Positions 33,600 to 62,723 of a stretch of DNA of 62,723 nt are shown here, in pieces. A program made the translations under genes and the position numbers. The stretch is taken from positions 62,001 through 124,723 of the forward strand of contig QPGO01000188.1 in the NCBI GenBank assembly GCA_008632985.1. Direction: 5' to 3'. The notes beneath the pieces were generated by a model, which was not told where the DNA came from, did not search any database, and saw nothing but the letters and a program-made list of their open reading frames with translations. The stretch is from Psammoneis japonica (Eukaryota). Position 1 is the stretch's first letter, and each line of letters begins with the position of its first letter.

Positions 33600-35232
33600 C
33601 AGTGACGGCACAATTCGAGATTCCCAACCCACTGAAAGCTGATCGAGACTTTGGCAAAGAGCATGGTTTAATGCTGCAACATGTTAATGAAGTCAGTCAC
33701 GGTGAATTCGAAGAAGCAGCCGAGCTTGTCATGGAGCAGTCAAATTTCACAGAAGATGAACACCGGAGTGCCCTGCAGCCGTGGCAATCCAACGATGCCG
33801 TCGTGGTGGCAAGACGTTTCACTGCATGCTGTTGCGGCTTTGTTGCAAAACAGGGCCAACCGTGGGGAACACTGCTCCCAAGTCATTTGTGTGTCACTCA
33901 ACGGTGACACGGCGTTTGATCCGCGTCAGGAGACAGCTCATGGGGCGACAACGTCACGCTTGGCTTGGGAACTGAGCGCCCGAGAGGGGAATTTCTGTCG
34001 TTTTTGCTCCAAGTCTCTGATTTTTCAAGTGCAGATGTGTGGTTGACGGATGAAAGCAGCCATGTCATGCTTCTCATTGATGAGTTGAGTGCCATTCATC
34101 ACAACATGGAGGGACACCAGGACATGAGTGAATTGCTTGTGACTTTGTGCAGCAAGATGGGTGCGCTTTGCTCTGCTCTGCGCATCTGTGCAGCACTGCT
34201 GATCTGTTGAGAGGAAGACATCCAGGAGGACTTCACCCCCCAGCAGAGCTTTCCAGGCGAAAACATGAATGGGCTGAGATCCCTCAATTCAGACAATCAA
34301 GTGCTTTCAAGGCATGATGTTGCAAAGCCATTCAGAACAACCATCGTTTTGGTGTGCCGTGCTTCGGGGGCGCATTCCCGCACTTGTCATCCAGACACGT
34401 GAAATTTCAACATGTGCCTCAGGTGCAATCATTGAACCCCGTCACCAGAAGGCATGCCAGAAGAAGAACAAGAACGGCACAAGCGCCTTTCAGAAGAACG
34501 ACGCAAATGCCTTTCTGCTGTGATGACAGGTGCATCGAACAGCTTCCAAACGAGCACAATTTGTTCCGGGCTTGTTCCCACAGGAGTGAGCGATTTGCAG
34601 CTATGGATGAAAGCGAGCCATTGTTTGCGTGGCCTCCTTTTGTGCTCGCTCAACGAAACATTCTAGGAAAGAAATGTCATCTTTTCCAGACCACATTGGA
34701 ACAACCTTGCTTGTTGACCGAACCAAGGCCTTTCTGATCATGATGTTCCGACATGTCAGGCGACAATTTTTTGGAACTGAGACTTGATGGATTTTTTGAA
34801 GTAGGCGTTTTGACGGTGTGCAAGCATGCTGTGCATGCATCTTTTCCAACCTGCGACTTCTTTCTCCTTCATCGTGAAGGCAAGAGAAAGTGGAAAGTCA
34901 TTGTGGGCTGCCAGTGCAAACAAGGCAGCGAGAATCCCAGCGAAGATGCATGGAAAGATGTCCCCACATCTGTCTGGATCGAAGGCAAATGTCGCAGGTG
35001 TCGTGTGTGGGGTGATGGGCAACGGGTTTCCATGAAATTGCACCGAGGTTGGACATTGCTGAGTGAATCCAACCAAGCTGATTTGCTTGGTGTTTCCGTG
35101 GCTGAAGCTCTTCCACAAGAGCCAGCAAGCAGGCAAGAAGAAAGACAGTGCTGCGTGGCCGAGCAAGAATGGGACGCACGCCATTTAGACTCACAAAACT
35201 CCCAATGCAGCGCAAAAAGACAGCGTGTGTAA
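33600..35232 (+). pseudogene. Degenerate multi-frame coding relic; C-terminal part resembles a PD-(D/E)XK/Crinkler-type nuclease domain
   Basis: Protein-like segments across frames (SRLAWELSAREG, VLRGRIPAL, CDFFLLHREG...VIVGCQCKQG) with Cys/His where Tyr would be expected. The family call is weak inference. Confidence 0.3.
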
Positions 35233-37180: not shown

Positions 37181-37636
37181 GAACTTGCAACTGCTTTGCA
37201 AGTTGGCACCCATGGTGTTTGTTGCAGACCAAGCTGGAGGTGAGGCTGCTGGTGGGGTTTCTGACTTGCTCAACATGCCACCTGAGCACACCCATCAAAA
37301 GTTGCCATGCTTTGTGGGCTTGCCTGACGACATTGATGAGCTGCAAAGCTGCTTTGTTTAAAAAGAGCAACACTTCATTGGAACAAGATGAACACAGGAC
37401 TGAACAGACATTGTCTCACCTTCTCATCCAATCATGTGCTGACAAATGCACAAAGAAACAAGGGTTTGGTTGCCACTGTCTGCACTGGTTGTTTTGCAGC
37501 TGCTGCAGATCCAACAGGGGGGTTGACACTCAAGGCTCACCAGTGGGGCATGCAGCCATGCCGAGTGTTAAGAGGTGCATTGCCAGCCTTCATGCAAAAA
37601 ACAGCATGTGTCAAATGTGAAATGACCCAGCTGACC
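37181..37636 (+). pseudogene. Hypermutated duplicate of the FBPase 3' coding end plus 3' flank (source 28957-~29415)
   Basis: Collinear alignment; translates NLQLLCKLAPMVFVADQAGG...PDDIDELQSC versus NLQLLYKSAPMAFVVDQAGG...PDDIDELQSY in the gene. Confidence 0.95.
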
Positions 37637-39815
37637 ACAACTCAATCCATCTGACAGAGCAATCAAACAGATGGCTCATGACCAGATGGAGGCATGTCAC
37701 GCTGCCAGGCTGAAACCAACTCCTCATCATCATTGTTGTCGTCTCATTCAAAGCATGCTCCAGCATTTCCATGGGCTTCTTTGGGGCCAACACAAAAACA
37801 TGCCAGCCTGCATGATCCCACAGCAGCAGTGCCAAGAGCTGTTCATTTCTCTTTGCTCCAACACCGTTTTGATGGCATTTCTCCATGTGCTCTCTCAGCT
37901 GACAAAAGTTGCCAAGTGTCGCCACTTTTCAGGCCTTTGAGGCACATGTTGAGTGGCTGGGGGGGGGGGGGGTTGATGTGCGATCAGACACAAGATGAGC
38001 AAGAGAGGAAGCTGGTCCATGGGTGGGAAGCAATGGCGCTGGTGGTCTGTCAACAGGAGAGGCGGCAATGGCCATGTTTGTTTCTCATGCTCATTTGAAG
38101 GCATTTCATTGGAAACAAAATGACCAGGCATCATCCACCACAGCAGCCACACATTTCATTGCATCCATTGATTCAGTTGCACACTTGACTCCATTGCAGC
38201 ACTTGCAACATTCTCATCAGACCAACGAAGCTCCACAAACTTAAAACAGCACTGCTCTTTAAATGGAGTGCCTGTCATGATGTCTGAGCTCAAAGTCATT
38301 TTGATGTGAGAACAATGCGTTGCAGTGGAATCTTCAAAAAGCAGCGGCATTGCCCCCCAAGTGAGCCCTTGCTGCAGTGTCTTGTCCAACTTAAAAACCA
38401 TTTCGACCTGAGAACAACTTGTTGCAGAATCTTCCTTTGAGCAATGTGTTTTGTTGCTTGACAAACCAACAAAACTTCCTCAAGCAAAACAGCCCACCAA
38501 AGCAATTGTGCAGACCTGCAACTTTGCACCGCATGGATTTGTGCGGAGTGTGTGAGTGCATGTGCAAATTGCTGTGTTCCTCCTGAGCTGCACTTGCAAA
38601 CAACTTGCATCTTCTCATCACTGGAGTCACATGGATGCCAATTGTCTGTTGTTTTAAAGTTGTCCCAAGAGCTGCTGGCTGCTGGGGCATCGGGCTGGCT
38701 TCATTGGTGCCTTGGTTTTGTGTTTTTCCTCTGGGAAAATCAAAGTCTTTGAAATGTCATGACAGAAAGTGTCTCAAGCTGAGCTCTGGGTGTGTGCCAA
38801 AGGTGCTGACTCCAACAGTTGCTTGCATTGTTGCACTCAAAATTCATCCTGTGAACAAGTCAATGTCTTTCTGGCGTGGCCTTGTGACGCGTCCTTGCCT
38901 TCTCAAATGGCGCGCACATGGCAACCAAAATGATGCCAGTGGAGCGGCGCCTTGTGCCCTGCTGCACTGGCTTGTCAAAGAACCACAAATGACATGATCA
39001 ACAAAATGTTGCATCCACCTGTCGGTCCACAGTCATTGTGCGCTTTCAACTCCCGAGCTGGGTTGCCAATTGGAGAACAACTTGTGCTGGGCCGGACATT
39101 TGAGTGAAGTGCAAGAAGAGCAAAGTTGATTCCCTGGCCAATTGTCCACCTCAGCTGCACTCAATTTCACTCAGTCTCTTTGAACAAATTGCAGCCACTG
39201 GGCAGATGCAGAGTCAACAACCATGAGGCAGATTTTGTTGGTGGAGTGCACAGAGCTGTGCGAAGCTGCAAATCGGCCTTCTTGGGGGCTCAAAACAACC
39301 CTGCAATTGTTTCAATTTATTTCACACAACCCTCCCTTTGGCGACATTGCCACCAGAGCATTGCGTTGCTCAAATCCTGTTTCTCAAATGAGGGTCGACA
39401 ATCCCTGCCAGCCGCAAAGGCAAACGGCGAGGCAAGGGTTGGCAGCGACACCTGGGAGATCTTAAAAAATTCACTTGTTTGCCCAACAACTTTGCTTCCT
39501 CACATTCTTTTACATTCATGACGTGATGTCTGGCTGTCTTGACTTTTGTCTGCATCATTCACGTTCATCCTGTGTCCTTTTTTCCATCATCCACTGCCTC
39601 TTGCAGACCGCACCTCTCTCGAATTATTCATGACATTGAAGATGAGGGAGAGGGACAGACTTTCTCGCCCCGCATTTCAATTTCAGCGATGACATAAAAT
39701 TCAACATGATGCCGATACCAGATGATAGCCGTGCGTAGTAGAGCGAAGTGAGCAGAGCAGTGTGAGGTGCGAGTGCGGCTTTCGATGGTGTACTTCTCCT
39801 TCTAGTTACCCTACA

Positions 39816-42849: not shown

Positions 42850-44240
42850 ATTGACCACTCAGTGGTTGGTGATTGCAGACTTTTTCGTGTTGGTCAGTCG
42901 GTCCGGCAGTTGGGCAGTCCGTCCGAATTTTAGAGTGCGTCCCTCGGATTTTGGAGCGGCACGGGTTGTTCAGTGCAAACGAGTTTTGCTCGGATTCGTG
43001 TGGAGTGATCATTGAGGACATTGGAGGTCGTGGGGACATCCCAAAAAATTGACAAATTCCCCATGATGGGTGCATGGAACAGTTTTTCAGGAGAGCTCAA
43101 AAGTGCTGCAAAGCTGGGGTTGCCGGCGTGGCATGTTGAAAAATGCGCTGAGCTTTGAACAAAGAAGACAGCTTGTGTCGTGAATTCTGCGTGAAACAGT
43201 CAAATTGAAGAAACATGTCAAACAACAAGTGGTTTGTGCAATGCACCATTTCAGTGGCAAATTGGACAAAAAAGTGTGTCCGTGCACCTTGCCACAGTCC
43301 CAAAAATGGAGTGAGCTGTCAAACACAGCTGTCATCTGCATCACCTGTGCGCTGACCACACACCACCCTGCCCCCCTGCCGCTGCAACACCAGCTGCAGC
43401 AGCAGGGCCCTGCTTGTGCACATGCAAGCAGTGCAGCATGCAACAGCACGCACCCACACTCACAAAGAAAAACAAATGTCAGGCAGCTGTGCAGTCCGTT
43501 GGTGTTTGTTGTGTTTTTCGGTTGTGACTTGTGTCCAATTGTTTGCGGTGGGCATGACCGTGTGAGGCAGAATGACTTTGTGTTCATGTTGGGTGCATGT
43601 GAAGGCCAGTGTGCAATGGCCTCATTGCACACGAACATTGTGGGGATTGCTTCCTGTGGCTTGAATTGTGAAACATGGATCTGGGCAAGGAGAAGGCAAA
43701 GGAGTCTAAGAGACTGGCAACAAGAAAACTGTGGAAAAAAAGAAAGGAGCTGAAGAATGCAGAGAACGTCAGAGGAAGGAATTGGAAGACCAACATGCAG
43801 ACAGGTTGCAATGCAAGGTGGTGCAGAAAGTGGATCGGCAGAGCAAGGAGTCAGAGGACCAACACATCGAGAAAGGTTGCAATGCGAGGCAGCACAGAAA
43901 GTGGATCGGCGGAGCAAGGAGTCAGAGGACCAACATCGAAAGAGGTTGCAGTGCAATGCGGCACAGAAAGTGGATTGGCAGAGCAAGGAGTTGGAGGACC
44001 AACATCAAGAGAGGTTGCAATGCAAGGCTGTGCAGAAAGTGGGTTGGCAGGGGGCAAGGAGTCAAAGGACCAATGTGAGGAGAGGCTGCAATGCGAGGCA
44101 GTGCAGAAAGCAGACTGGCAGAGCAAGGAGTCAGAGGACCAACATGAGAAGAGGCTGCAATGCAAGGCAGTGCAGAAAGCAGACTGGTGGACATGTGCCA
44201 CAGAATCATCCAGGAGGCATGTTGGCCATTCTCAATGAAG
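42850..44240. other. TpA-depleted island D
   Basis: Near-absence of TA between two normal genes. Confidence 0.8.
43775..44190. repeat. Tandem repeat of ~60-63-bp units (about 6-7 copies)
   Basis: GAGGTTGCAATGC[AG]AGGC.GTGCAGAAAG.GGA.[CT]GGCAGAGCAAGGAGTCAGAGGACCAACATC repeated. Confidence 0.92.
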
Positions 44241-45964: not shown

Positions 45965-47844
45965 ATGGCCACGTCAAGCACAGCTACTATCGCTGGATGG
46001 TTGCTGCTGCTGCTACTAAATCTGGCGATAGTAGTAGCAGTGGTCTCTTGTCAGGACTTGTTTCCGGACTTTGGCCTCACATTAACGAAGCAGTATGCAA
46101 AGAAGTAAAGGCATCGGTTGAACCGTCTTTGCCGATTTACCCGGACCGCTCAAGACCTTGACCTTTACAGAATTGGATTGGGCATGGTTCCTATTCGTAT
46201 TGATAACGTCTTGATTCACGATAAGGAGAGAGACGCGCTTCAGTTTGACTTTGACGTCGTGTGGGACGGTGATTGTAACATTCAATTGAAAGCCAATTAT
46301 CTCGGATCATTTGGAGTTCAAAAAATCAAATTAGTGGACGTCTCAGTGTCGTGCTGTCGCCCTTGTTGAATACCATTCCCGTCGTTTCCGCGGCACAAAT
46401 TTGCTTTATCAATCCCCCCACGTTTGAGTTGGACTTTTTGGGATTGGCCGATCTGGCCGATTGCAGTTTGGTGGACAGCAAGATTCGAGGTGTCATATCG
46501 GATGTGTTGGATAGCATACTCGTCTTGCCCAATCGCTTGTACATCAAGGTGGATCCTGCCAATCGGTTCTTGGACACGTACAAGCCACCCGTGGGTGTGG
46601 CGCGAGTGACGGTGGAACGTGCCACGGGATTTGATGGAGGGTACTTTTCCGATTCGGATGATGTGTATTGCACCGTCAAATTGGGAAGCAGTCCTTTGTG
46701 GAAGACGAGTACCAAAAACAATTGTACAAGTCCTGTATGGAACGAAACGTCTGACTTTTTGCTTTATGATCACGATCAAATCCTTACCATTAGAGCTTGG
46801 GATGAGGATACCGGTTCGGATGATGCCTTGGGGACTGCCCGAGTCACGGTTCGTGAAGTGCTCTTGGCTGGCAAGACTGTTACTCTTAACCTGGACAAGA
46901 ATGCCAAGGTGACTCTGCGCTGCGAAATTTGTCCCTTGAGTCCATCCAATCTCGACAGTTTGGAATCCAACAAGGATGAGAATCTCCTCAGTGGTCTCAT
47001 CACCGTCTTGGTGATTGGGGCCGAGGATATTCCATTGAAAAAGGCCGAGGCCAAGACCTTTGTCAAGGTAAAGTATGGCGACAAGACTGAATTTGTTACC
47101 GGTACAGTGAAGCACGCTCCCGGTGTGGATGCTCTCGATCCAATTTATGATTGTGCCTTTCAGATACCGCTTGGTCCCGATGCATGCAACAAGAAGGAAT
47201 CGCTCGAGTTGATCCTTATGAATGGTAAAGACACAGTCTTGGGCACTACGACGGTGTCTCACGATGCCATGATGGTGGCTTCTGAAACGGGAATTACCGG
47301 TCAACGTAAAATTGGTGACGGTGGAGCCTCCTTGGAGTTTCGTGTGACCCTCTCCGGCGTACTCGAGCCCACGGATGCGGATACCCTTGCCAAGGATGGT
47401 ATTTCTAAACTAGACCTTACGGCATCTTCGAATCACCCCGACAGAGCCAAGGGGACAGTTCGTCTCTCCATTTTGAAGGGCTGGGGATTTGAAGTCGAAA
47501 AGAGAAAACACCGATTGATCAAGCGTAGGGACGTGCCGGATGTCTATTGCAACATTACCTTTGGGTCGAGCCCCAAGGTTTGGAGGACAAAGACGATCCG
47601 AAACAACCTTACGCCCGAGTGGAACGAAGCAGCAGACTATTTGTTTTTGGATCATGGACAGATTATCAACATTGAAGTGTTTGACGAGGACAAGAGACGA
47701 GATAAGGACGACGAGCTTGGAGGGGCTAGGATCAATGTTGGAAAACTATTGGTTGCTGGAGGACCAACGGACGTGGAGCTTTTCGAAGCGGGCAAGCCAA
47801 GCGGAAAGTACATTTCCATGCGCTGCGACTTTGTCAAGCCATGA
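45965..47844 (+). CDS. Extended-synaptotagmin-like protein (N-terminal TM, SMP-like region, three C2 domains); frameshifts near 46120 and 46335
   Basis: Hydrophobic N-terminus; FTFTELDWAW/GMVPIRIDN SMP-like; C2 motifs SDDVYC...PVWNE...WDEDTGSDDALG and PDVYC...PEWNE...FDED. Confidence 0.8.
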
Positions 47845-47975: not shown

Positions 47976-49187
47976 TCAGAGTTCGGGTGCCCAAGGCGCA
48001 ACAGCATGACGAATGTTTCCTTCGGCTTGACGAAGCCGTCGGACCCATTTTCCACTTGGCAGACCAACGTACTCGGCAATCTTTCGCTTGTAGATAAGAG
48101 AAGTATCAGGTCCTTGATTGAGAAGGCTCAACGGTGTTCCTGTGGATTCAAAAGTTTTCGTAGAGAGCATGCTGCCAAGGATGCACTCCAAAAAACTGTC
48201 GTACAATGAAAGATGCAGCCTCACAATATCAAGAATATGTTTTATCATCTCGTCATCTCCCTCAATGTGGTATTTCGACATCCTTCTTGCTGCAAACTCA
48301 CGTGACGCTGCAAACAGAGCAACGAGCACCCGTACAGTGCGTGCATACTTTGTAAACACATGCTTGTTGAACACGAAGTCCAAAACCTTCTGGTTCTCCT
48401 TACAATTATCGACAACGTCAAGCATGAAATCTTCATCCCGAAGCCATTTCTTCGATATATGTAACAAGTCTCCATATAACGTAGCACTTGCTAGACAGAT
48501 TTCACGATCCTCTGCCCATTGCCAACGTCGGCCGTTACCTAGTACGTAGGACGGAAAACCGAGACCAGCCTTCATCCAGGCTCTGGCAAACTCCAAGTTA
48601 TCCCAAAGAGAGGGCTCGATCTGTTTTTGGACTGGAAACATAATTTCTGAATCACCACCAAAACGCCCAAGAGCAGGTAGTGCCTCCATAACTAGAGGTA
48701 AGTAAGCCAGTTGAAGTTCATGGCTCATGAAACCGAGTATGCGAACATTTTCGTGGAGAACCCTCACCCCATGATTCAGGACCTCCGCTGGACGCCAAAG
48801 CAGCAATCACAACGTTTTCGTTTACCATCAAATTATACGGTAGATTGAAGCAAGAAACCTGCTTGCATCCCGCGAATGCGAATGCCTTTTGCATTTGATA
48901 TTTTGGACTTTCTGGGTCATCCAAACAGCGAACTGCAGGAAAAGCGTGAAAGGTAGCGCATACATCCTCAATGTCATTCTTCCATTCAGGCTCGAGATCA
49001 TTAAAATTGATTTTGCGTTCGCCAATGGAAGACAAGACAGATTCACGGGTCTCCTTCTCACTTCTAGTAGAGTTGGGACTACTGAGTTATGGATTGCCTC
49101 CTCGAGTTCTGCCACGCGACGACGGAGTCTGTCGTTTTCTTGTTCCAGTTCTGCAATGCGCTGTTTGTCGAGGCACGATTCTGCCAT
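47976..49187 (-). CDS. Hypothetical protein (N-terminal coiled coil, DUF4116-like WxxDxxF repeats), split by frameshifts
   Basis: IAELEQENDRLRRRVAELE; repeats LWDNLEF, WAEDREI, WLRDEDFMLDVV; normal composition. Confidence 0.55.
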
Positions 49188-49713
49188 TTTCAATCTCTTG
49201 TTGTTGGGTGCAATGATGACAAGACGATGGGGAGAAAGGAATTGAAAGATTTTGAAGAGAAAAGAGAATGTGTCATTGTCATTTATTCGCGATCATTTTG
49301 TCCGAAGTTCTGTCCCCCATGCGTCTTGGGTGTTTGCCATTTAGTCTGCTGTGACAATTTCCCGGTTCATGATCAGTGTCATGATTGCCTCTCTGCTCAC
49401 TGCGAAGACAAAACATTCCCAAATGATGCACACAATGACCACCCAGTGCTTTTGTTGTTGCAAATGCCTTGGGCAGACATTGGGACCTTGCTGGGTGATT
49501 GCGAGGCCACCTTTTGGCTCCTCTTGTGTTGGCTTGCAGCAGGAGTGCCAGAGAGCTCAACGATGTTGTGACCCGCACTTTCCTTGTGTGGTGCAATCAA
49601 AGCATTGCCAATGATGCCCACCTGCTGATGGCACACATTGTCATTGCCTCAACTTGACAAAATGTGCCAGTTTGACTTTTTCATGTGATGCCTCTCAGCA
49701 GTGCTTTCCCAAC

Positions 49714-49989
49714 TGACAGGATTTGAACAGGATTTGGGTGTGCGCGAAATGCCGCACGCTGTTTAGTTTACCGCGCACAGTTTTGTGTGCTTTAGTTCCA
49801 CGCGTTCGCATGCAATGCAGTTTGCTTTCGAGCCACAAGGCTCACAAGAATGACAACAGTGGCCCGATTGTGCCGACTTGCACGTCTTTCGGCTCCTGCA
49901 GCGGTCTCTGAGCGGAGACTCATCTGCCATTTAGACAGCAGCAAGGAGTCATTGTTTGAATTCTTGCCATTTGCCTTCAATTTCTGTCA
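49714..49989 (+). repeat. 5' LTR
   Basis: Ungapped 276-bp match to 56021-56296; TG...CA termini. Confidence 0.97.
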
Positions 49990-50926
49990 GATTGACAGTC
50001 TTGCTCATTGTCAACCCATTGAGCAACCGCCATCGTCGTCGTTGATTCACCGACGATGCTGTTTCAATTCTGCGTGGACCTCCGTGTGTGTTCTACACAC
50101 ATCGGCAAGTCTGCGCGCGTTCAATGCCAGGCATCGGCAGGAATTTAACGTCACCGTCAAGTCTCCTTGCCGCTGGACATCTGGATTGATTGTGCTGCCT
50201 TTGATTGCTGAAGACATGCATCAACGGTCATGTCCAAGTCCATCCTTGATCCTCATCCCTTGATGCACCCATTCATCGGTCAACGGTCAAGAACCCTGCA
50301 CATTCAAGTGTCTTCGTCGCTGAAGACATGTGCACATGTGCACATCTTCACAGCCAAGAACTTGTGCCCACTCTTCGGACTGCGGTTTTGCTTCCACTCT
50401 ACAAGCACACCGAGTCCATTGTGTCTGATCTGCCCCGGACTGCTGGTGCTCTGCAGTTCCGCTGGGTCCACGAGGACAACTGTGAGAGCAAGCAGCCATG
50501 ATTGCAGCCTGCGTTGGGGCGGGGGTGTTTTCCCGAGTTTGTTTGTTCGTCCACAGCGCCTGGCACCTGCGTCAACTGGCCAGCCTGATCGGGAAATCCA
50601 ACCGACACAAAACAAGAACGGTTCGGGGGTCTTGTCCACCTCCAGTCAGCTCACCTGCAGGGGTTTACAACCCGCTGCTCCGCTCGCAAGCAACCCAAAG
50701 CACCGCCAGCTGCGGGTTCAGACGTGCCGGCACAACTCTGCGGACCGGATGGGAAGTTTAGCACTTGACAACAAACGGGATGGCACAGCCCGGCAACTTC
50801 TGATTTTAAGGTAGTTCAAGATTTCAAGTCAAGTCCATTTCAAGTCAAGTCTGTTCTCACCCAAGTTTCAAGTCTGCCTTTGCTTCCCAACAAGAATTGC
50901 TTGTCCCGACACCACTTTTTGTCTGC

Positions 50927-53498
50927 CATGGTTCTCACTCGTCAGCAACAAACCGATGGTTTCGAGCACGTTGTTGGAACCGTGCTTGCCCAAGGTGCTG
51001 GGAGCCCTCTTCGTTTGGCTTTGACCCAAGACGGCACGGACTCGCATCAGGAACTGTTCACATTCATGCCGTCCCAAATCGACTCGCTTGAGTGCGACAA
51101 CGGCACCAATGTGATCCCTTTGCCCCGCGGTTATAAGAACATGCCAGCAGCTCTAATTAGTCTGTACATTGTCAAAGCACACGAAGGTCTCGACGTTGCC
51201 AATGACTCCTTGTTGTTCACGCATGACGAGTTCCTTGCCTGCCGCCTCAGCCCCGACTGCATGTCTTCTGTGTCCGCAGGCAGCTCACCCCTCACACCTC
51301 CGCATGTCACCAACCCGACCAAGGCACGCGACCCGGTGCGAGACTTCAAGCGAGGCATCAAGCGTGACCCCACCGCTTTCACGGCTCTCAAATCCGACAA
51401 GCAGTGGCACACTTGGCACACCTCACTTGTGGCACAAGCCCGTGCCCAAGACGTCGAGTGCATTCTAGACTCGTCGTACAAACTGACCAGCCCTGAAGAC
51501 AAACTGCTCTTTGCTGAACAGCAAAAGCACATGTTCACCGTCTTCGAACGCATCCTTCTCACCGACAAGGGCAAGGCTCTCATTCGCGAAAATGTGGGGT
51601 CTTCTGATGCCCAGACCGTCTGCTGTGCCTTGTCTGAGCATGCGCTCGCCTCCACCCGCGCATCTGTCAAGTCCTCCACCTTGCTCACGCACCTTGCCAC
51701 CGCACGTCTTGGTGATGGTGCTTGGAAAGGTCCGACCCACAGGTTCATCCTTCATTGGCAAGATCAGTTGCGCAAGTGCAAGGCACTCATCCCGGCCAGT
51801 GACCACTTCTCTGAAGGACAGAAGCGCGTCATGCTCGAGAATGCCGTGCACCCTGTCGAGGAACTCCGTGCTGTCAAGAGCCAAGCTGATCAGCATCGTA
51901 CGCAGAGTGGCAAGAGCCTCACATGCGATCAATGCTGTGGCTTGCTCCTCTCCGCGGCGGCTCAATGCGACAGTGCGTTTCAACCCAAGACGACACCTCG
52001 AGCTCCCCGACGTGCCACACACGCACACAACGTCTGCTCCGAGGAACCGTCCGACGATGTGTTCTACGACATTGACAGCGACATTGACGTCCTTCAGGCC
52101 AATGCTGCCTGCACCCGTGGTCCCAGCCTCACTGGTGACCAATGGAAACGTCTCCCTCCCGACCACCAACGGATTTGGGATTTGTTGCCCCATTCCTCCA
52201 AGGCGATCATCCTCGAGCATTCTCGTCCACCTCCCCGCAACCCGCGAGCCAGCAACTGCCATGAGTCCATTACGGCCAACCTTCACGACCAACGCCTTGG
52301 GAGTGACGGTGATGTCAACTTGTCCAACACGACTCCTGCTGACTCTGGTGACTCCGCTCCAAATGTGGGTGCCACTTCGGATGATCCCATCCTGGCACAC
52401 CTCACCAAGCGCAAGCCCCTGCCACCCGGTGATCTGCAACGTCTGTTGTCTCCCAACCAAGCCCCAAATGCTGGTCGATCGGGGCCATCCACCGCTCCCT
52501 CTACCCCGCCAGCTCCTGCCGATGACACAGAACTTAACGGCCGCACTTGCCGCCGCGTTGACAACCACAATGTCATTTGCTCTGCCTCTGCTCATCGCTC
52601 CACACGCACTGGTGCTCCAGTCGATCGTGGGGCCAACGGTGGCATTGCTGGTGATGACGTTCGCGTCATTGCACGCACCTCTCGCCAAGTCGACGTTCAG
52701 GGCATTGACGACCATCAATTGGTGGACATCCCCATTGTCACCGCTGGTGCCGTCATTGAGACCCAGTGTGGTCCCGTCATCGCCATCCTCCATCAGTGTG
52801 CATGCACGGGCAAGGGCAAGACCATTCATTCCTGCGGCCAGCTCGAATGGCACAAACAGGATGTCAACGATCGCTCTGTCAAGGTGCCCAACGGCCTGCA
52901 ACGCATTGCCACTCCTGATGGCCATGTCACCCCCATTGACATCAAGGGCGGCCTGCCTTGTGTTGCCATGCAACCTCACACTGACACCGTTCATGCCGAC
53001 ACCCCGGCCGTCGACTCTGGTTGCACCAGCGCCCAACTGTTTGTTGGCACCGAGTCCACCGTCACTGACGTCTGCGGCACCAAGACGGACAAAGAGTTTG
53101 TCAACACACTCGAGGATCAGATCCATGAGCGTGGTGCCCCATCCAAACTCATTGGCAACCGTGCTCAAGTTGAGATCAGCAACAAGGTGCTTGGGATTCT
53201 ACGAGCCCTCTTCATCTCCAGCTGGCAAAGTGAGCCTCACCAGCAACACCAAAACTTTGCTGAGCGTCGATGCCAGACCGTGAAGTGCATGGCAAACACT
53301 GTCATGGATCGTTTCGGTTCGCCTGCCCACACATGGCTGCTGGTGCTCATGTGCGTGTGCTTCATGCTCAACCACACAGCGTCCCCACGTCTCCACTGGC
53401 GCACGCCCCTTGAGACTCTCACTGGCTCCACCCCGGACATCAGCCCATTGCTTCGCTTTCACTGGTGGGAACCCGTGTGCTTCCACCTTGATGACTAA
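50927..53498 (+). pseudogene. Copia gag-protease-integrase (5' part of the polyprotein), with internal deletion
   Basis: DFKRGIKRD gag motif; protease VDRGANGG; integrase core TDTV(H)ADTPA...SEPHQQHQNFAERR; Tyr->Cys/His substitutions. Confidence 0.9.
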
Positions 53499-56073
53499 TT
53501 GGCCGTCCGAATCCCGTGAGTTGCGTGGACGCTTTGTTGGCATTGCTGAGCACGTCGGCCACCAGATGACCTTCAAGATTCTCTCTGACGAGACTCAGAA
53601 GATCCTCTGCCGGTCCAACGTACGATCCGCCACCACCGATCCTGCCGTTCGAAACCTGCGTCTTGATCCTCCTGATGGGGAGCCACCTGAACCCATCATC
53701 AAATCTCGCCATGACGACAACCCCGTCAATTCTCCTGATGGGGAGATCAGGACACCCAAGATGCCAGTTTTTGATCCGCAAGACATCATCGGATGCACCT
53801 TCCTCATGCAGCCACAAGAGGACGGACAACGCCACAGAGCTCGCATCGTCAGAGCCGTCGAAGACCACGAATGGAAAGTGAACGGCAACCCCGAGCTCAC
53901 CAAGTTCGTCTGCTCTGTCAACAACGACGAATGCGAGGAAGTCCTTGCCTGCAACGACATCATGAATCACATTGAGCAAGAAGACGAAGACACTGCTGTT
54001 TGGAAATTTCGACGCATCGTGTCACATGAAGGGCCTCTGAAGCCTCATGACCCAACCTGGAAAGGCTCAAGCTACAACATTGTGCTTGAATGGGAAAGTG
54101 GGGAGATCACGTCCGAGCCTCTCGCCATCATCACCAAGGACGACCCCGTCACCTGTGCCATCTATGCACGAGAGAATGGACTTCTCGACACTGATGGCTG
54201 GAAGCGGTTCCGCACCATCGCGAGGCGCCAGAAGAAGCTGTTTCGCATGGCCAACCAAGCCAAGCTTCGCTCCTTCCGCACTGCACCTCGCTGCAAGTGC
54301 GGATGCGAAGTTCCCCAGAACTGCAAACACGCCATGTCACTGGACGAACGCAATGGCAACCGCAAATGGGGAGACGCAACTAATCTCGAGATGGACCAAC
54401 TCGGGGAATACGAAGTCTTCCATGACTGCGGGCCATTTGAGTCTTCCACTCCTCCTGCGGGACACAAGAAGATCCGAGTGCACCTGGTGTGCAATGTGAA
54501 ACATGACTGTTGCCACAAGGCACGACTCACAGCCGATGGGCACCTCACGGACGTGCCCATCGACAGTGTCTGCTCCGGAGCAGTCTCCCTCCATGGCCTT
54601 CGGCTGATGATTTTCCTGGCCGAACTCAACGAGTTGGAGACATGGGCCACTGACATTGGCAATGCCCACCTTGAAGCCACCACCAAGGAGAAGCTCTACA
54701 TTGTGGCCGGACCCGAATTTGGCAAACTCGAAGGACACATCCTTGTCATCCACAAGGCCCTGCATGGACTGCGCAGCTCCGGTCTCCACTGGCATGAGCG
54801 CTTCGCCGACTGCCTGCGAGCTGAAGGCTTCTTCCCCTGCCGCGCCGAACCCAACATTTGGATGTGCAGGAACGGCGACCACTGTGAACACATTGCCGTT
54901 TGTGTGGATGACCTCGCCATTGCCATGAAGGACCCTCAATCTTTCATCGATGCTCTCACGGAAAAGCACAAGTTCAAGCTCAAGGGTGCGGGACCCATTG
55001 AGTTCCATCTGGGTTGCGACTTTTCCCAAGATCCCGACGGCACCTTGTGCCTGTCTCCGCGCAAGTGCATCGAGCGCATGGTCGACAGCTGCACCCGACT
55101 GTTTGGGGAGAAACCTGCCACCAATGCCCTGTCACCTCTGGAGAAGGGTGACCACCCCGAACTGGACACTTCCGAACTGCTGGAGCCCGATGGCATTCAC
55201 AAGTTCCAGTCTCTTGTTGGTTCACTCCAATGGGCAGTGTCCCTTGGTCGAATTGACATTGCCACGGCCATCATGTCACTCTCTAGCTTCCGAGCTGCGC
55301 CCCGTCAAGGCCACTTGGATCGTGCCAAACGCGTCTGTGGGTGCCTCTCCAAGATGCGACACGGCGCTCTCCGCGTTCGCACGGAAGAGCCCGACTGTTC
55401 GGATCTCCCTGCTCCGGCCTGTGAATGGATGCATTCCGTGTATGGCGAAGCAGAAGAGATGATCCCAAAGGATGCTCCACCGCCCCTTGGCAAGTTCGTC
55501 ACTGCCACCCACTGCGTCGATGCAAACTTGTGCCATTGCATGCTCACCGGACGCTCTGTCATGGGAATGCTCCACTTCCTCAACAAATTCCTGGCTGATT
55601 GGTTCTCCAAGAAGCAAGCCACCGTGGAGACTGCGACCTGCGGGTCTGAATTTGTTGCCGCAAGGACTTGTGTCGAGCAGATCATCGACCTGCGCATCAC
55701 CCTGCGCTGCCTTGGCATCCCGATCCGCAATGTCAGTTGCATGTTCGGTGACAACAAGTCAGTTGTAGACAGTGCCACCATCCCGCACTCCAAGTTGCAC
55801 AAGCGACACACCGCACTGTCGTTCCACCGTGTGCATGAGGCAATTGCCTCTGGTCACCTTGAGCTCCATTTCATCGAAGGCTCCCGCAACCCTGCTGACA
55901 TTCTCAGCAAGCATTGGGGTTGCTCCCAAATCTGGGACCTTCTCCGCCCCCTCATGTTCTGGAACTTCATTCCATCCGAAGTCGAATCTGTTTCTGTGGC
56001 TCCTCAAGCAAACTGGGGAGTGACAGGATTTGAGCAGGATTTGGGTGCGCGCGAAATGTCGTGCACTGTTTAG
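53490..56073 (+). pseudogene. Copia reverse transcriptase-RNase H (3' part of the polyprotein), reading through into the 3' LTR
   Basis: HKARL, DIGNA(H)L, KAL(H)GLRSSG, AV(C)VDDL, (C)VDANL, TAT(C)GSEF, FGDNKS, NPADILSK. Confidence 0.92.
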
Positions 56074-56296
56074 TTTGCCGCGCACAGTTTTGTGTGCTTC
56101 AGTTCCGCGCATTCGCGCGCAATGCAGTTTGCTTTCGAGCCACAAGGCTCACAAGAATGACAACAGCAGCCCGATTGTGCCGACTTGCACGTCTTTCGGC
56201 TCCTGTGATGGTCTCTGAGCAGAGACTCATCTGCTGTTTAGACAGCAGTGAGGAGTTGTTGTTTGAATTCTTGCCATTTGCCTTCAACTTCTGTCA
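56021..56296 (+). repeat. 3' LTR
   Basis: Matches the 5' LTR; preceded by a purine tract. Confidence 0.97.
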
Positions 56297-56839
56297 CTGA
56301 CAACTGCTGCACATGGGCCAGTTGTGAGAGCGTGTCGAAACAGCTGGCTTGTGCTTTGCAGCTTTGGGTTTTTTGTGCTGCTTTTTTGCTGCTTGTTTTG
56401 CATTTTTTAAATTGAGTTTGATTTTGACTTTCTTCTGCTGCACCTGTGTGGCCAAGTTGCCGCTGCCTGTCGACTCAGCATTTTTCTTGTTTTTCATGCT
56501 TCCAAGTTGCACGCCGCTCTTGTCTGTGCTGTGTTTTTGGCACTCCAGCTGCGCACACTTTCCACACACACACCACAACAGTGCACCCTCTCCTCCAACA
56601 CAGAAAATCAAGAGTGCATTGTTGTGACATGCATGTCTTCTGTGTGTTTTGGCTCCAATCGACAAACAACCGCTGCGGCGTTCTTGACCGGATTTGCTCA
56701 CCCCTTTGCCCGATGAAGCTGACCTGGATCTCTCATGTTCAACAACAATGACATCACAATTGCAGTGGTGTGGAATGACTTGCCTGTGGCTTCAACATGG
56801 AGTTGTTCAAGTTGAGGCCAAAAAGCTTGGTTGTGTGTC

Positions 56840-57920
56840 TTGCACTTGTCTTGCACACAAATCTCTCAAACACCTCACACATGTTCTGCGTTGTGGTTTC
56901 ATGCACAGAGATCTTGCAAGCACCTCACATTGTCTCATGTGCACAGCTCCTGCACACCTCACATGCACCTCTTTCACATGCCTTGCAAAAACACCTCATG
57001 CTGCTCTCCTTGCGCACAGGTGGCAAACACCACCTTGCACACATCTTGCACACACAGCACGCGCACATCTTTGCACAGAGTTCTTGCACAGCGCAGCTCC
57101 TGTGCACACCTTGTGCACATCTTGCACACATCTTGCAAACACCTTGCAAACACCTTGCACACAACTCACACATCTTGCACAAATCTCAAAACCACCTCAC
57201 ACACATCTTGCGCACATTTCAAACATTTTGCACACATGTCACACACATCATGTGCACAGATCTCTCAAATGTCTTGCACACAGCTTGGCACAAATCCTGC
57301 AAACACCTTGCACACATCTTGCAAACACACCTCACACACAATTTCCAAACACCTTGCAAACACATCACACACACACACACACACACACAAACACGCATTT
57401 GCACAGCTGTCAAGTGTTTTGCACACATGATGAACACAGCACATCTGTGCACAGATCTTGCAAGCACCTTGCCACAACTTCTGCAAACCTGGCACACATC
57501 TTGCACACATTTCATGCTCATCTTGCACAACCATCCCACAACCAGCAGCACCTTGCAAATGTCTTGCAAACACCTCACACACAATTTGTGCACACCTCCC
57601 ATGCACCTCTTGAACATTTTGCAAACACCTTGTGCACACTTTGCACACATCTCACAAACAGCACCTCACACTCAAATCCAAACATCTTGCACACATTTCA
57701 CACATGTTGTGCACACACCTGACACGCATCTTCTTGCAAACACCTCACATGCACTTTGCGGGCATTTGCAAAAACCTCTCACACATCACACAGCCATCTT
57801 GCACACTTTTCAAACATTGTGTGCATGCTGATCATGCACACCTCTGCACAGATCTTGCAAACACCTTGCGCATGTCTTGTGCACAACTCCTGCACACCTT
57901 GCAAATGTTGCACACATTTT
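56840..57920. repeat. Degenerate low-complexity satellite (CACATCTTGCA / AACACCTTGCA / CACACA units)
   Basis: Dozens of ~11-12-bp units; no TA. Confidence 0.9.
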
Positions 57921-58929
57921 GCTCCCACCTCGCATGTGCCACATGCCTTGCGGCTTGTCCCAGACTTGGGCGGCACACATGTGCCCCTTTTTGCACAACA
58001 GAATGTGTTCAGTGCACTGTTCAACATCAACTGCATTCAACTGCAATGACTGCACTGGCGGCTTTTGAGCAAAACAAACAAATGAAGTCCAAGCCAACTG
58101 GCGGGCTTTTTCATCTTGTTGAAAATTGAATGAGGACATTGCAAGGACACCAGCATTTCATGCAGTCTGTGTCATGAGCAACAACAGTGAAAATGCATGC
58201 CCAGTCTGTTGGCGACAGCAACTGAACCTCATTTTGCTCACATTTTGCCTTCAAGAACTGTTTCTTTTCCATTGCCATGTGTGTCTCCTCCACAGCATCA
58301 ACTGGCACAAGTGCACCAGTTTTGTGTGCCAACAGATCAGCGAAACAGGGTCCAAAGTTGGTGCCATTGTGTGGGCCAAGCCTTGCTTCTTCTCATGTCT
58401 GCCAAAACTTGTCAACCAACAAATGTTTTGTTCAATCTGTTGAGATTGTTTTCACTGGCATGTGTTGACAAAAGAGCATTTGTGTCATTGCAAAGACTTC
58501 ATTTGCATGCAAGAATGTCAATTTGTGTCTTTCTCAACACATGAATGTGACCACAAATTGCTCGTTGGAAAACCAAGCTCTCATCTTGTGGTGCCATTTG
58601 GCCATCAATGACTGAGTCTAGCATCCTCATTTTGGATGCATGTGGGTGCACACACAAGAGCTTTCTGAACATGCCCACAGCAACACATTTGAAAATTGCC
58701 ATGTTTCAACTGTTGAAAATTGCACCGCAAATTTGGGCCAAGTGTTTTCATGCAAAAGGGGTCATTTTGTGTGTGTGAGCACACCCAAGTCTGGAGCAAG
58801 TCTTGCACAAACATCCCACACACACCTTGCAAACACCTCACACACATTTTTGCACATCTCACAAACAGCACCTTGTGCACATGTTGACCACATTTCTGGA
58901 ATCCTGTGCCCCGCAGTGTTTTGCTTTTT

Positions 58930-59330
58930 GCATCTTGCAGCCAGTTGTTGGGCGAATCCTGCAAACTGCAGCTGTTGCATCTGACAGCTTTTGGGCAAAT
59001 CCTGCACCCCACAGCATTCTGCACCTTGCAGTTTTTGGGCAAATCCTGCAATCCACAGCTTTGCACACCGCACAGAGTTTTTGAGCAAATCCTGTGTGGC
59101 TTTTTGCACATCACAGTCATTGGGCAACTCCTGCAAACCTCAGCTTTTTGCACCTTGCACACCCTGCAACATCTTGCACCTTGCTGTTTTTGGGCAAGTC
59201 CTGCACCCCACAGCTTTTTGAACTGTGCAGCTTTTGGGCAAATCCGCACCCCAAAGCTTTTTGCACCTTGCAGTTTTTGGGCAAATCCTGTGCCCCACAG
59301 CTTTGCACCCCCCCCCCCCCCCTTGCTTTC
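58930..59330. repeat. Degenerate tandem repeat (TTTTGGGCAAATCCTGCACCCCACAGC...TGCACCTTGCAG)
   Basis: About 7 visible copies. Confidence 0.85.
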
Positions 59331-59399
59331 AAAGCACTCAACATGCAAACAACACCATTGAATCCAATGCCCCCAAATTGTCTCTCGCATGCATCTTCT

Positions 59400-60460
59400 A
59401 AAAACAACACACACACGCCTTGCAAACACCTCACAAACATTTTGTGCACACGTCAATGACAGCACCTGCACGTGCATTGCTCACATGTCTTGCACTTTTT
59501 TCAAAAATGATTTGCACACACACATCTTGCAAAAAACACCTTGCATGCACACCACACACACATGTTGCACATGTGTCATGCGCGTGTTGCAAACATCTCA
59601 CGAACACACAGATCTTGCAAGCTGTTTGCACGTGCGTCTCTTGCGCATGGCTCCTGCGCACCTTGCACACATTTTCCACACACATCATGCACTCATGCAC
59701 AAACATCCCACACACACCTTGCAAACACACCACACACTCTTCACAAACAGCATCTCACACACGTGTCACTCACATCTCCTTCGCACCTTTCAAACATTTT
59801 GTGCACATTGTCTTGCACACATCTTGCAAACATTTTGCACACATTTCACACACTTGTTGTGCGCGCATGTGCACATCTTGCAAACACCTCTCACACACCT
59901 CACACACAATTTGCAAACACCTTGCAAACATTGCAAAAACTGCACCTTGCAAACTTCTTGCCCACAAACATCCTGCACACTTTTCAAACATTTTGTGCAC
60001 ATCTCACAAACACCTCACAAATTGTTTCACACACATCTCACACAAATCATCTTGCAAACACCTTGCACATGTCTTGCACACCACATCTGGTGCACATCTT
60101 GCAAACACCTCACACACATTTTGTGAACATCTTGCCAACTCTCACGCACCTTTCGAACATTTTGCACACATGTTGCAGACACCTCACACATGTCTTGCGC
60201 ACAGCTCCCACACATGTTGTGCACATCTTGCACATGTTTTGCACACATCTGGCACACATCTTGCAAAAAACCTCACACGCATCTCGCTCTCAACTTTCAA
60301 ATGCCTCTGACATGTGTCTCTCTTGTGCAGCTCCTGCAAACCATGTGCACATCCTTGCACACATCTTGTGCACATCTCACACACATCTTGCACACATTTT
60401 GCAATCACCTTTCCCTGCACACCTTGTGCGCATCTTGCAAACACCTTGCACACTTCTTGT
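59400..60460. repeat. Second block of the CACATCTTGCA/AACACCTTGCA satellite
   Basis: Same units as 56840-57920. Confidence 0.9.
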
Positions 60461-62723
60461 GTGTGCCAGGCCCTGGTTTGTGTTGGCAGCTTCCGGCAGC
60501 ATTGTCATCTTCAGCACACTTTTTCCTGCATTCGGTGTTTTTTGTGCTGATTTGTGTGATGGTGATGTGCCCATTGTTGCCAAACTGACAAGCCATTGGG
60601 CCTGCAGCTTGCTGCCTGTGTCATTTTGCAACATCAAAGGGTGCAACAATGCAGCTTGCACTTTGTGCCAAAATCATTTGAAAATGTCATGTTGGCCCTG
60701 ATCAATTTTTGCTTGTGGCAAAGCCAAAACATGCACGCCACCCTGCAAAAGAACTCTGGAACAATGAATTTGTGCAGAAGCAGCGCCACAGGGCCCCAGT
60801 GGAAATTCCAAGAAAGTCTGGAATGTCGCAATTTTTTGGCATTCCTGGTGCTGATTCTGCACTGACTTTTGTGCAGTTTCTCAACATTTCAGACTTTTTT
60901 GGCATTTGTGCTGCTTCTGCACAAACTTGATGTTCCAAAGTTTTTCATGGAGCATGCAAAGGTGGGTGGACAACACCAACAACTGTGCACAGAAACTCAG
61001 CTGATGAGACATGATCCCACCCACAGCTCCTTTGCAACAATTTTCTGGCAGCTGCCTGCCAGCGTGCACAGACGTTTGCTGTGCAGCAGCTCTCTGTTGC
61101 AAAGACATTCCTGGCCACTGTCCAATGAGGAGATCTTTCCACCAGCGCTGTTGTTGTTGCACATGCCTTGCTCAGACTGGATGACTGAGGCAACTTGTTC
61201 CAAACTCAGGTGCAAAAACACATGAAAAAAAAGCCCATTTTTGCATGAAACACATGGTCTGATGAACTTGTGGTGCAACGTGGAGGCATGGGCACATTCA
61301 AAAATGTCTTGCGCACACCCAAGTTGTCATTTCTTGAGCATTGATTTGGTGTTTTCTCAGCTCCAAACGGCAATTTGAGAGGCATGGCTGTTTTTTTTTG
61401 TTCTTGTTGGTTTTGCAGACATGCAGTGCTGCCAAGGTTTTCTTTCAATTGACAGCACTCTGTTCTGGTGCTGCAGACACTCAACCAACTGCTTGTGCAC
61501 ACCCACAATTCTGCTGCCTTGGCTTCATGGCTGCACCCTCTGCATGTTTTTCCACACAAGCTCTGGTGCAGATGTTGCCTTTCTTTGATGCTGTGTGCTG
61601 ACAACAGCTGTTGCCTGCCTGTTCAGACCTGCTCTTTTGTTGGCGTGCCTTTGTTCTGGCGTGATCATCGGCAATCTTGTGCAGTGAAAAACGACTGGCG
61701 TCAAGCCCTTTTGGTTTGATTGCTCAGCACTCTTCTTGGCATTTTTTGTTCTTGCATGCAAAGTTTCCACACAAGTTTCAGCACAATTCCATGCATTCTG
61801 CAAGTCATTTCAGATGGACGATGCCTCAAACCACCAACTGCTCTCTCTTTCCACACCTCTCAAGTGTCAATGACCTCCCTTCTCCCTGTTGTCTGCCCAA
61901 GTTTCCCATGTTGTGTGGCGAACAATCTTCCATTGTTGCAATTTCAGAAGTTTGAAGACAAGACCAACTCAGCATGTGTTGGCCATTCATCCATGTGCCA
62001 ACAAATCTGCGCAAGTTTCAGCACATTTTCCACACATCTCAAAGGTCATTTTGGAAAATTGACCTGCCAAACTGCTGACTTTGGTCCATGCCTCTCCAGT
62101 GTCAACAACTCCCCTTCTTCCCATTGTCCAATTGAGCTCTCCATTCTGTGCTGTGAACAATTCTCTGTCATTGCTGCCCCCAGAAATGTGAATTTGAGCC
62201 CAGCTCAGCATGAGTTGGAGGTCAATTTGTGCCCCATTCCTTCTCATGTTGAAACTCTTCCAGACCTGTTTTTTGCCTTTGCCGCCAAACCCAATCCCAG
62301 GAAGAAAGCTTGGCTGAAGTGTTGGGCACTTTTCTTTTGAAGTCTTGTTGTGCCAGCCCATTTTTGTTGTTTTCAGCTGTTTCTGGTGGGCCTCACAGCC
62401 TTGTCGCATCAATCTTGACCAACTGTCATGCATCCCTGCACATCACGTGATGCACTGGGGGCGCGGGTTGGCTTGTTGCTGGAGTTGCAGGGCAGAAGCA
62501 TGGCAGCACTTCAAACACAGAATTTGGGTTTTGTTTTGCTTGCGCGTGCCCTTTTCATGGAAACACCATGCCAAGTGGGTGATGATGGCTGGGCATTTTT
62601 GGCAGTTTGCTGTCTCTGTTGCAAATGTCATCTGAAGCTCTCTGCAAGATGTGTGGCAATGGCAGCCTTGGCCATTCTGATTTTCCTGATGAGAAGCTCT
62701 GCTCCAGCAATGTGCCTCAACCC

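Follow-up and report, generated by a model that had tools for sequence, protein, structure and literature searches.

Loss of TpA dinucleotides underlies the tyrosine-to-cysteine and tyrosine-to-histidine recoding of a dead copia retrotransposon and extends into adjoining DNA in the diatom Psammoneis japonica

We analysed a stretch of 62,723 nucleotides from the diatom Psammoneis japonica (NCBI GenBank assembly GCA_008632985.1, contig QPGO01000188.1, positions 62,001 to 124,723 of the forward strand). This whole stretch is called the window below, and all positions are counted from its first letter. Positions 49714-56296 of the plus strand are occupied by a Ty1/copia retrotransposon with two long terminal repeats (LTRs) of 276 bp each, in whose polyprotein most conserved tyrosines (Tyr) have given way to cysteine (Cys) or histidine (His). 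This recoding is the coding footprint of a change of the dinucleotide TpA to TpG or CpA, which occurred in the DNA, after insertion, and tracts depleted in TpA extend well beyond the element.

The LTRs form a direct-repeat pair (TGACAG...CTGTCA) with 91% identity and no gaps (Table 1). The putative target-site duplication of 5 bp is CCAAC at the left end and CTGAC at the right; three of the five bases are identical, and both mismatches make up a single CA-versus-TG pair, as a mutated TA would leave. Between the LTRs, the polyprotein is split over two frames. A sequence-only reading of the locus, made by a model from the letters and their open reading frames (ORFs), had placed the start at 50927; the first ATG of the upstream frame comes one base later, and tblastn matches to long relatives set in at 50967. 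The first part of the polyprotein has no Pfam match, and intact relatives are likewise without a match in that part. The second part is 57-61% identical to long relatives across about 830 residues (tblastn), and a protein search with it found 1319 relatives (E<=0.001); identities for the 120 best are 49-67%, mostly 60-67%, across the reverse transcriptase-RNase H part. The RVT_2 domain is recognised with a lower score (74.8 bits) than in three relatives (94-104 bits), and the motif order, with the protease motif upstream of RVT_2, is collinear with relatives of 1.3-2.1 thousand residues. The Pfam integrase model rve gave no match at E<=10 in the studied copy, nor in two intact relatives (P0003 and P0126). 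The integrase region of this family is too divergent for the model and, because the intact relatives also lack a match, its absence from the copy is not evidence of damage.

Table 1. Features of the copia element and dinucleotide compartments of the window. TpA and CpG values are observed/expected (o/e) ratios.
Feature	Position	Strand	Basis or remark
TpA-depleted tracts	1-9.5, 22-23, 29.6-39.3, 43-44.2, 49.09-62.7 kb		TpA 0-0.17, CpG 0.07-0.87
Genic stretches	rest of window		TpA 0.4-0.8, CpG about 0.85-1.2
Left flank, TpA-depleted	49089..49713		2 TAs in 625 bp versus about 1 per 25 bp further left
Target-site duplication, left copy, CCAAC	49709..49713	+	read from sequence
5' LTR	49714..49989	+	276 bp, direct repeat, TGACAG...CTGTCA
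Polyprotein part 1 (gag-like, protease, integrase-like)	50928..53495	+	ORF 50769-53498; ends at TAA 53496-53498
Protease active-site motif DRGANGG	52623..52643	+	conserved with relatives (alignment)
Junction of in-frame deletion	52979..52985	+	157-276 residues, depending on the relative; 15/16 long relatives skip residues there
2-bp deletion and in-frame TAA (polyprotein frameshift)	53496..53498	+	frame 3 to 1 in every tblastn alignment
Polyprotein part 2 (integrase C-terminal, reverse transcriptase, RNase H-like)	53497..56073	+	ORF 53284-56073; stop TAG 56071-56073
Reverse transcriptase domain RVT_2	54454..55083	+	Pfam PF07727, 74.8 bits (cutoff 31.6), residues 391-600 of frame
Recoded motif CSGAV	54571-54585	+	in RVT_2, frame 53284-56073
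Recoded motif NAHL	54661-54672	+	in RVT_2, frame 53284-56073
Recoded motif KALHGL	54754-54771	+	in RVT_2, frame 53284-56073
Recoded motif CEHIAVC	54883-54903	+	frame 53284-56073
Recoded motif CVDD	54901-54912	+	in RVT_2, frame 53284-56073
Recoded motif TCGSE	55636-55650	+	frame 53284-56073
Candidate polypurine tract GGGGAG	56015..56020	+	abuts 3' LTR; function suggested by position
3' LTR	56021..56296	+	276 bp, direct-repeat partner of 5' LTR
Target-site duplication, right copy, CTGAC	56297..56301	+	read from sequence

Tyr makes up 0.4-0.5% of the two frames of the copy, with four residues in the frame of 909 amino acids and five in that of 929, while Cys stands at 3.2-4.7% and His at 4.7-4.8%. 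The best 120 relatives have median contents of 4.3% for Tyr, 1.1% for Cys and 3.7% for His, and every one of these 120 has at least 1.5% Tyr. Conserved columns, defined as having the same residue in at least 60% of the aligned relatives, came from two alignments: the reverse transcriptase part was aligned with relatives 1-60 of the 120 listed, and the protease-integrase part with 14 long ones. In the second frame, the initial 71 residues are an out-of-frame reading and were excluded. At the 39 columns of conserved Tyr the copy has Cys 23 times, His 7 times, Phe 3 times, Trp once and Tyr 5 times, and Cys or His stands at 30 of the 34 changed columns. Only 13% of the conserved Tyr are retained, against 85% of the residues at the other conserved columns (644/756; Fisher p = 7.9e-22). 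The columns corresponding to YVDD, YSG and NAY are Tyr in all 60 aligned relatives, and that of KALYG in 98%.

Across the 795 conserved columns, the copy departs from the family consensus 146 times. A departure was called TpA-type if it reverts to the consensus by a single TG-to-TA or CA-to-TA step, and CpG-type if by a single TG-to-CG or CA-to-CG step; 37 departures are TpA-type, 22 are CpG-type and 87 are neither. The TpA-type consists of Y>C (23), Y>H (7) and one each of I>M, I>V, M>V, V>A, L>P, T>A and S>G, and the CpG-type of R>Q/H/C (11), V>I (4), D>N (3), A>T (2), T>M (1) and P>L (1). The 87 others are mostly conservative exchanges, as expected for lineages about 60% identical. When a profile of 60 relatives was used to score the reverse transcriptase part, the copy as it stands obtained 1509.0 bits, compared with 1603.7 after restoring Tyr at 22 Cys/His columns and 1495.4 with X in these places.

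Much of what the sequence-only reading had claimed is borne out by these comparisons. All six motifs that it quoted (Table 1) are present in the downstream frame, its count of about nine Tyr agrees with ours, and its attribution of the Cys and His residues to TpA change is upheld by the conserved columns and by the sibling copies described below. The evidence it had named as fatal was relatives that natively carry CVDD or KALHG, or replacements spread evenly across residues; the relatives have Tyr in these motifs, and losses are concentrated on Tyr. It had expected few changes of other kinds, and here the tally agrees only in part, with Y>C and Y>H dominating the TpA-type while CpG-type and other departures are also present. 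The rescoring after back-mutation that it proposed yields a gain that is real but small, and a poor discriminator.

The cause of the erasure of Tyr is the loss of TpA. The coding region contains only 26 TpA (o/e 0.10), with TpG at 1.61 and CpA at 1.38. CpG is still abundant there, as the sequence-only reading had stated, with 330 occurrences (o/e 0.80), and TpC in the element is undepleted (o/e 1.00-1.13). Because TpA is almost gone in the element while CpG is only mildly reduced, the process acting on TpA is, per site, the faster of the two. A strand bias suggested by the o/e ratios of TpG and CpA was dropped: the raw counts run the opposite way (595 CA and 510 TG in 49990-56020), and o/e ratios are unfit for this use because the process itself alters base composition.

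The effect is not peculiar to the element, contrary to what its first description implied. In 1-kb bins the window is bimodal, with TpA o/e of 0-0.17 in depleted tracts and 0.4-0.8 in genic DNA, and the depleted DNA amounts to about 35 kb. CpA and TpG o/e in the depleted bins lie at 1.3-3.0. Among the tracts are tandem repeats of other than retroelement origin; these weigh less as evidence, since an array built from a TA-free unit is trivially free of TA. For comparison, the accessible part of a preprint on Bigelowiella natans gives cut-offs for TpA-depleted clusters at a Rho of <=0.43 for TpA and of >=1.52 for CpA+TpG (10.64898/2026.01.13.699255). The values of the element fall within this definition, judged for CpA and TpG from their separate ratios.

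Further observations concern the extent of the tracts. To the left of the 5' LTR, a TpA-free zone runs for 0.4-0.6 kb into single-copy DNA (48828-49713), and the depletion reaches into a host ORF on the minus strand (MAESCLDKQRIAELEQ..., with its Met placed at about 49187) over the initial ~100 nt. To the right of the element, degenerate tandem repeats with periods of 11, 43, 44 and 53 take up 56297-62723, 6.4 kb or more, and continue to the end of the window; C and A are abundant on the plus strand there, TA occurs three times in total, and CpG o/e is 0.16-0.51. Two small TpA-free islands lie in genic DNA, one at 42950-44200 containing a 69-bp tandem repeat (43770-44179) and one at 21900-22900 made up of a (TGCTGGT)n microsatellite (22617-22874) and about 0.7 kb adjoining it. 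The older tracts at 1-9500 and 29650-39300 have TpA o/e of 0-0.14 and CpG of 0.07-0.68. Outside the tracts, the neighbouring host gene at 46279-47844, of C2/SMP type, has relatives with up to 62% identity, and its only named close relatives are from diatoms, Cylindrotheca fusiformis at 42% and Amphora coffeaeformis at 37%, in keeping with a diatom genome.

The copia copy is dead and internally deleted. At the site of the frameshift, sibling contigs carry an extra CG behind 53497. The in-frame deletion takes out a linker and the conserved block LRPFFGW...TTQYAR...PALNVRRRNEPVA; the gap is filled in all 14 aligned relatives, and sibling contigs that run on past 52979 encode NVHRRNEPVA, the end of the deleted block. 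Eleven conserved Arg have been lost by CpG-type change. The statement that the element was disabled mainly by TpA-specific missense change rather than by general decay therefore fails as worded and is right only in part, in view of the frameshift, the large deletion and the 22 CpG-type replacements. The frames are indeed open, as first described, and this is no sign of preservation: TAA and TAG together occur 34 times in the six frames of 49990-56020, compared with 233 times in a genic stretch of equal length, and TGA occurs 245 times in both. Non-coding frames are open for 577 and 598 codons (51465-53198 on the minus strand and 51487-53283 on the plus strand, respectively). These long open frames are a by-product, since TAA and TAG are nearly gone.

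Both LTRs of an element start out identical when it integrates. In this copy 26 positions differ, all by transitions: six adjacent pairs of CA versus TG, two sites of TA versus TG or CA, eight of CG versus TG or CA, and four other single differences. With 12 sites of CG in both LTRs and the eight single CpG losses, our estimate of CpG loss per copy is about 0.25, which predicts about 0.7 CA/TG pairs between the LTRs compared with the six observed. Most of the six pairs are for this reason taken to stem from a TA hit independently in each LTR, and one of them (49860-61) is TA in sibling copies. The per-copy TpA loss in the LTRs is 0.70-0.81, assuming from zero to six concordant double events, near the 30/39 at conserved Tyr codons, and so the internal changes need no inheritance from a mutated parent.

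Two side observations were made on the LTRs. In five of the six discordant pairs CA stands on the left and TG on the right, and the target-site duplication follows suit (6/7, not significant); a position-dependent strand bias could be behind this, the sample being too small to tell. Transitions that involve neither TpA nor CpG are found at 49727, 49752 and 49981, namely AAC/AGC, ATT/ACT (equal to AAT/AGT on the opposite strand) and GCC/GTC; the first two could be rare A-to-G events after a 5' A.

Sibling copies give the polarity of the change at the DNA level. They were taken as contigs from four sequencing runs (X1-X4) of one sample and one study, aligned at >=80% likeness; no RNA data set containing the stretch was listed. 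In X1, 13147 contigs align to the stretch, of which 2823 are at least 99% alike, and between-copy variation is mostly by transitions (483/580 variant places). Among the 30 variant places of the element in the best-supported rows, the window has TG or CA where siblings have TA at 21; the remainder are five with TG or CA versus CG, two with CG versus TG or CA, and two other changes. The family is extremely abundant in the sample, with a summed word depth of about 60,000-215,000 compared with about 110-130 in the single-copy flank, a measure that is no copy number. In the flank itself (49004-49709), the sole matching contig differs from the window at 11 places, and the four listed include CA versus TG at 49280-81 and TA versus TG at 49285, which hints at independent events in two alleles or strains. 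Since the LTRs are discordant, the host-derived target-site duplication and the left flank are affected and siblings carry TA, the change took place in the DNA, after insertion, and these data contradict editing, the term under which the recoding was first described, if it is taken in the RNA sense.

The surviving TAs are not a random sample. There are 100 TAs in the depleted DNA (35,037 bp) and 1117 in the genic DNA (25,854 bp). Some contexts survive, with 27 TTAA in depleted versus 31 in genic DNA and 28 versus 72 CTAA/TTAG, and others are lost, with 0 versus 90 ATAT and 3 versus 198 ATAC/GTAT. YTAR (Y, pyrimidine; R, purine) accounts for 15% of genic TAs (163/1117), for 74% in the two oldest tracts (1-9500 and 29650-39300; 40/54, p = 4e-21) and for 42% in the element (15/36, p = 1e-4). 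Both TAs kept in the two LTRs are TTAG. At 21 events polarised by siblings, read in 5-nt contexts, the edited A is followed on its 3' side by T at 10, C at 7, G at 2 and A at 2. As a side observation, many surviving TAs of the oldest tracts sit between T-runs and A-runs (TTTTAAA).

These counts are consistent with independent events on the two strands, at rates set by the base that follows the A on its 3' side: T is fastest, C and G are intermediate, and A is nearly protective. Since most surviving TAs are YTAR, the process favours 5'-TAY-3', and TAY is the Tyr codon. An in-frame Tyr is always a good target on the sense strand, giving Cys; for His the event must fall on the opposite strand, and that hinges on which base comes before. 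Cys outnumbers His by 23 to 7 (p = 0.005 versus an even split), and the neighbour rule explains much of this excess, since crude rates predict 18.2 Cys of 30. So far as we found, this TAY/YTAR rule appears to be new, and no mention of sequence context was found in the accessible main text of the B. natans preprint (10.64898/2026.01.13.699255).

Together, the change is specific to TpA, affects both strands, depends on neighbouring bases, is confined to a compartment and leaks into flanks. We consider it very probable that a DNA-level process converting TpA to TpG or CpA acted, after integration, on the repeat-rich compartment that holds the dead copia copy. In this process, A:T is converted to G:C at TpA on either strand, TAY being preferred, TAG slower and TAA nearly immune. 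An event on the sense strand turns a Tyr codon into TGY (Cys) and one on the antisense strand into CAY (His), and the same process strips TAA and TAG from all six frames and leaves them artificially open. Ordinary decay of CpG to TpG or CpA runs alongside in the same tracts, at a lower rate per site. The repeats, or heterochromatin, may be recognised and targeted in the manner of a genome defence. As for the chemistry, the favoured candidate is deamination of adenine to inosine on DNA by a TadA/ADAT-like enzyme, by analogy with the proposal made for B. natans; it has in our view not quite an even chance of being correct.

Several points weigh against this interpretation or limit it. The process is known here from its footprint alone. 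The relatives are only 57-67% identical to the copy, and polarity at the protein level depends on the conservation of columns; at the DNA level it comes from 40 of 596 variant rows, those termed best supported, and the runs are possibly the assembly's own source and hence not independent. The evidence on indels covers 12 of 32 rows. Some of the concordant TG or CA states may be inherited from a parent copy that was already mutated. A single per-site rate of TpA loss misfits the LTR counts (two kept in both, two in one, six discordant), which implies heterogeneity among sites. The neighbour rule is measured against genic DNA and combines tracts that differ in age, and neighbouring bases may themselves have changed. 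The Cys excess goes beyond what the neighbour-only model gives (p = 0.04), and a residual strand effect is possible.

The best surviving alternative retains the TpA process and differs in the base attacked. The T of 5'-RTA-3' could be oxidised to 5-hydroxymethyluracil (5hmU) or 5-formyluracil, which mispairs with G and yields T-to-C changes. The footprint is symmetric, TA to CA after a purine being the same as TA to TG before a pyrimidine, and sequence does not distinguish the attacked base. In dinoflagellate DNA, 5hmU occurs preferentially at TpA and TpC, and 5-formyluracil causes A:T-to-G:C mutations. TpC is undepleted here, and for the only published case the accessible part of the report proposes, without proof, the deamination of adenine. 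We regard attack on thymine as unlikely.

Far less probable is that the changes were made before integration, by A-to-I editing of the transcript by an ADAR- or ADAT-like enzyme or by deamination of the cDNA, and then copied into the insertion. The predominance of Cys, the product of sense-strand A-to-G change, over His points in this direction, and ADAR and fungal TAD enzymes prefer a 5' U. However, such editing predicts identical LTRs, yet six CA/TG pairs and two sites of TA versus TG or CA are discordant. The target-site duplication, the left flank and tandem repeats unrelated to retroelements are also affected, the seven changes to His require the other strand, and the neighbour rule accounts for much of the Cys excess.

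A sequencing artefact, in which a modified TpA in repeats is miscalled as TG or CA by the base-caller or polisher, is very improbable too. Systematic miscalls at modified motifs are known from long-read platforms, and the sole contig matching at 49280-49340 disagrees with the window. Against this, the same contexts give CA in one LTR and TG in the other, 2823 of the 13147 aligned contigs match the stretch at >=99%, siblings bearing TA read normally in the same data, and the signal grades with the age of the tract and with neighbouring bases.

Neutral decay together with that of methylated CpG, with the loss of Tyr as an incidental result, is scarcely credible as the cause. CpG decay is real, as seen in the 22 replacements, the eight single CpG losses between the LTRs and a CpG o/e of 0.07-0.68 in the oldest tracts. 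It is unable, however, to convert TAY into TGY or CAY, it leaves the contrast in retention between Tyr and other residues (13% and 85%) unexplained, and TpA in the element has fallen to 0.10 while CpG is still at 0.80. A metagenomic copia element, L001, the single locus returned by a search of metagenomes, provided a decay control: at a CpG o/e of 0.18 and a TpA of 0.54, it keeps 70% of the relatives' Tyr, with 51% identity elsewhere, compared with 11% and 59% for the studied copy, in counts that are pooled across six query proteins and not independent. Over L001:1-7978, this distant relative (50% identity) has CpG o/e of 0.00-0.41 per kb and normal TpA (0.40-0.73). L001, from another organism, exemplifies decay of CpG with TpA spared. 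CpG decay stands as a second, slower process and is contradicted as the main cause. Finally, the idea that Cys and His are native to an active lineage of the family has next to no chance, given the Tyr content of all 120 listed relatives, the invariant Tyr of YVDD (60/60), the siblings carrying TA, and the frameshift and deletion in the copy.

The window offers a new example of a process reported once before, in the 2026 preprint on B. natans. Targeted hypermutation of invading DNA is known for C-to-T chemistry, as in repeat-induced point mutation (RIP) and with APOBEC, and that one report is the only chromosomal A:T-to-G:C version. With the saturated footprint seen here, the range of the process extends to a diatom, and retrotransposons, satellites and flanks are its substrates here. 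The motif, with TAY favoured and YTAR resistant, is a constraint that a candidate enzyme has to satisfy. The footprint also matters in practice: in tracts without TAA and TAG, gene callers will report long false ORFs or seemingly intact polyproteins, dating by LTR divergence will overestimate age, and host genes beside insertions may suffer collateral changes from Tyr to Cys or His.

More speculatively, diatoms might carry a dedicated, sequence-specific DNA mutator that marks repeats or heterochromatin and converts the A (or T) of 5'-TAY-3' on both strands, as an A:T-to-G:C counterpart of RIP that is shared with chlorarachniophytes and still active. Continued activity is suggested by the CA/TG and TA/TG differences between the window and the sole flank contig in single-copy DNA. 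We hold this proposal to be tentative and somewhat more doubtful than not. If it were true, the mutator could be old within the SAR (stramenopile, alveolate and rhizarian) group, and, its motif being the Tyr codon, it would kill proteins through Tyr-to-Cys and Tyr-to-His changes while erasing stops, with a leak of a few hundred bases into host genes.

Among known systems, the closest is that of B. natans. According to the accessible part of the report by Mettrop et al. (10.64898/2026.01.13.699255), integrated giant-virus and virophage DNA mutates about 1000-fold faster there than the rest of the genome, and the mutations seen in mutation-accumulation lines are almost only A-to-G and T-to-C, all at TpA. 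The same part of the report describes TpA-poor coding sequences enriched in reverse transcriptase and DDE domains, and its authors propose the deamination of DNA adenine. Shared with our window are the change of TpA to TpG or CpA depending on the strand, the clusters in which TpA is depleted while CpA and TpG are enriched, and the nature of the target as foreign, integrated or repeat DNA. The host differs, a chlorarachniophyte with viral DNA there and a diatom here, where LTR retrotransposons, tandem repeats and flanks are hit. So does the degree: the viral region of B. natans is given a TpA o/e of 0.45 in the accessible text, whereas the tracts described here are near saturation (0-0.17) and show CpG decay in addition. 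New mutations were measured in B. natans, as opposed to the footprint available here.

The copia element itself resembles the diatom CoDi elements (Maumus et al. 2009, PMC2806351) in its RVT_2-type reverse transcriptase and apparently in having the protease upstream of integrase and reverse transcriptase, as far as the accessible text of that study describes them. That accessible main text makes no mention of hypermutation, dinucleotides or RIP, and no description of TpA hypermutation in diatoms was found in the literature searched, which included the accessible part of a 2025 preprint on diatom transposable elements. For adenine deaminases in genome defence, the same literature yielded only work on base editors and APOBEC.

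The footprint resembles RIP of Neurospora and other ascomycetes in that repeats are inactivated in place, by dinucleotide-specific changes that are transitions only, in sharp tracts that leak into their neighbours. Unlike in RIP, which changes C to T mainly at CpA, raises TpA, lowers GC and makes stops, TpA is lost here and TAA and TAG are removed. RIP itself was ruled out as the agent on the TpA o/e of 0.10 with an excess of CpA and TpG, and on the siblings that have TA where the copy has TG or CA. The action of APOBEC3 on vertebrate retroviruses and LTR elements (Knisbacher and Levanon, PMC4866542, in its accessible part) likewise leaves a context-specific, deaminase-type footprint in integrated LTR elements. 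However, APOBEC converts C to U on minus-strand cDNA before integration and leaves G-to-A changes of one strand and identical LTRs, whereas the change described here is A:T to G:C, on both strands, after integration, and includes flanks. Finally, A-to-I editing of RNA by ADAR and fungal TAD enzymes has in common with it the A-to-G change and the preference for a 5' T or U, which for ADAR is also quoted in the accessible part of the B. natans preprint (10.64898/2026.01.13.699255); the substrate is RNA in those systems and DNA in the window of P. japonica.

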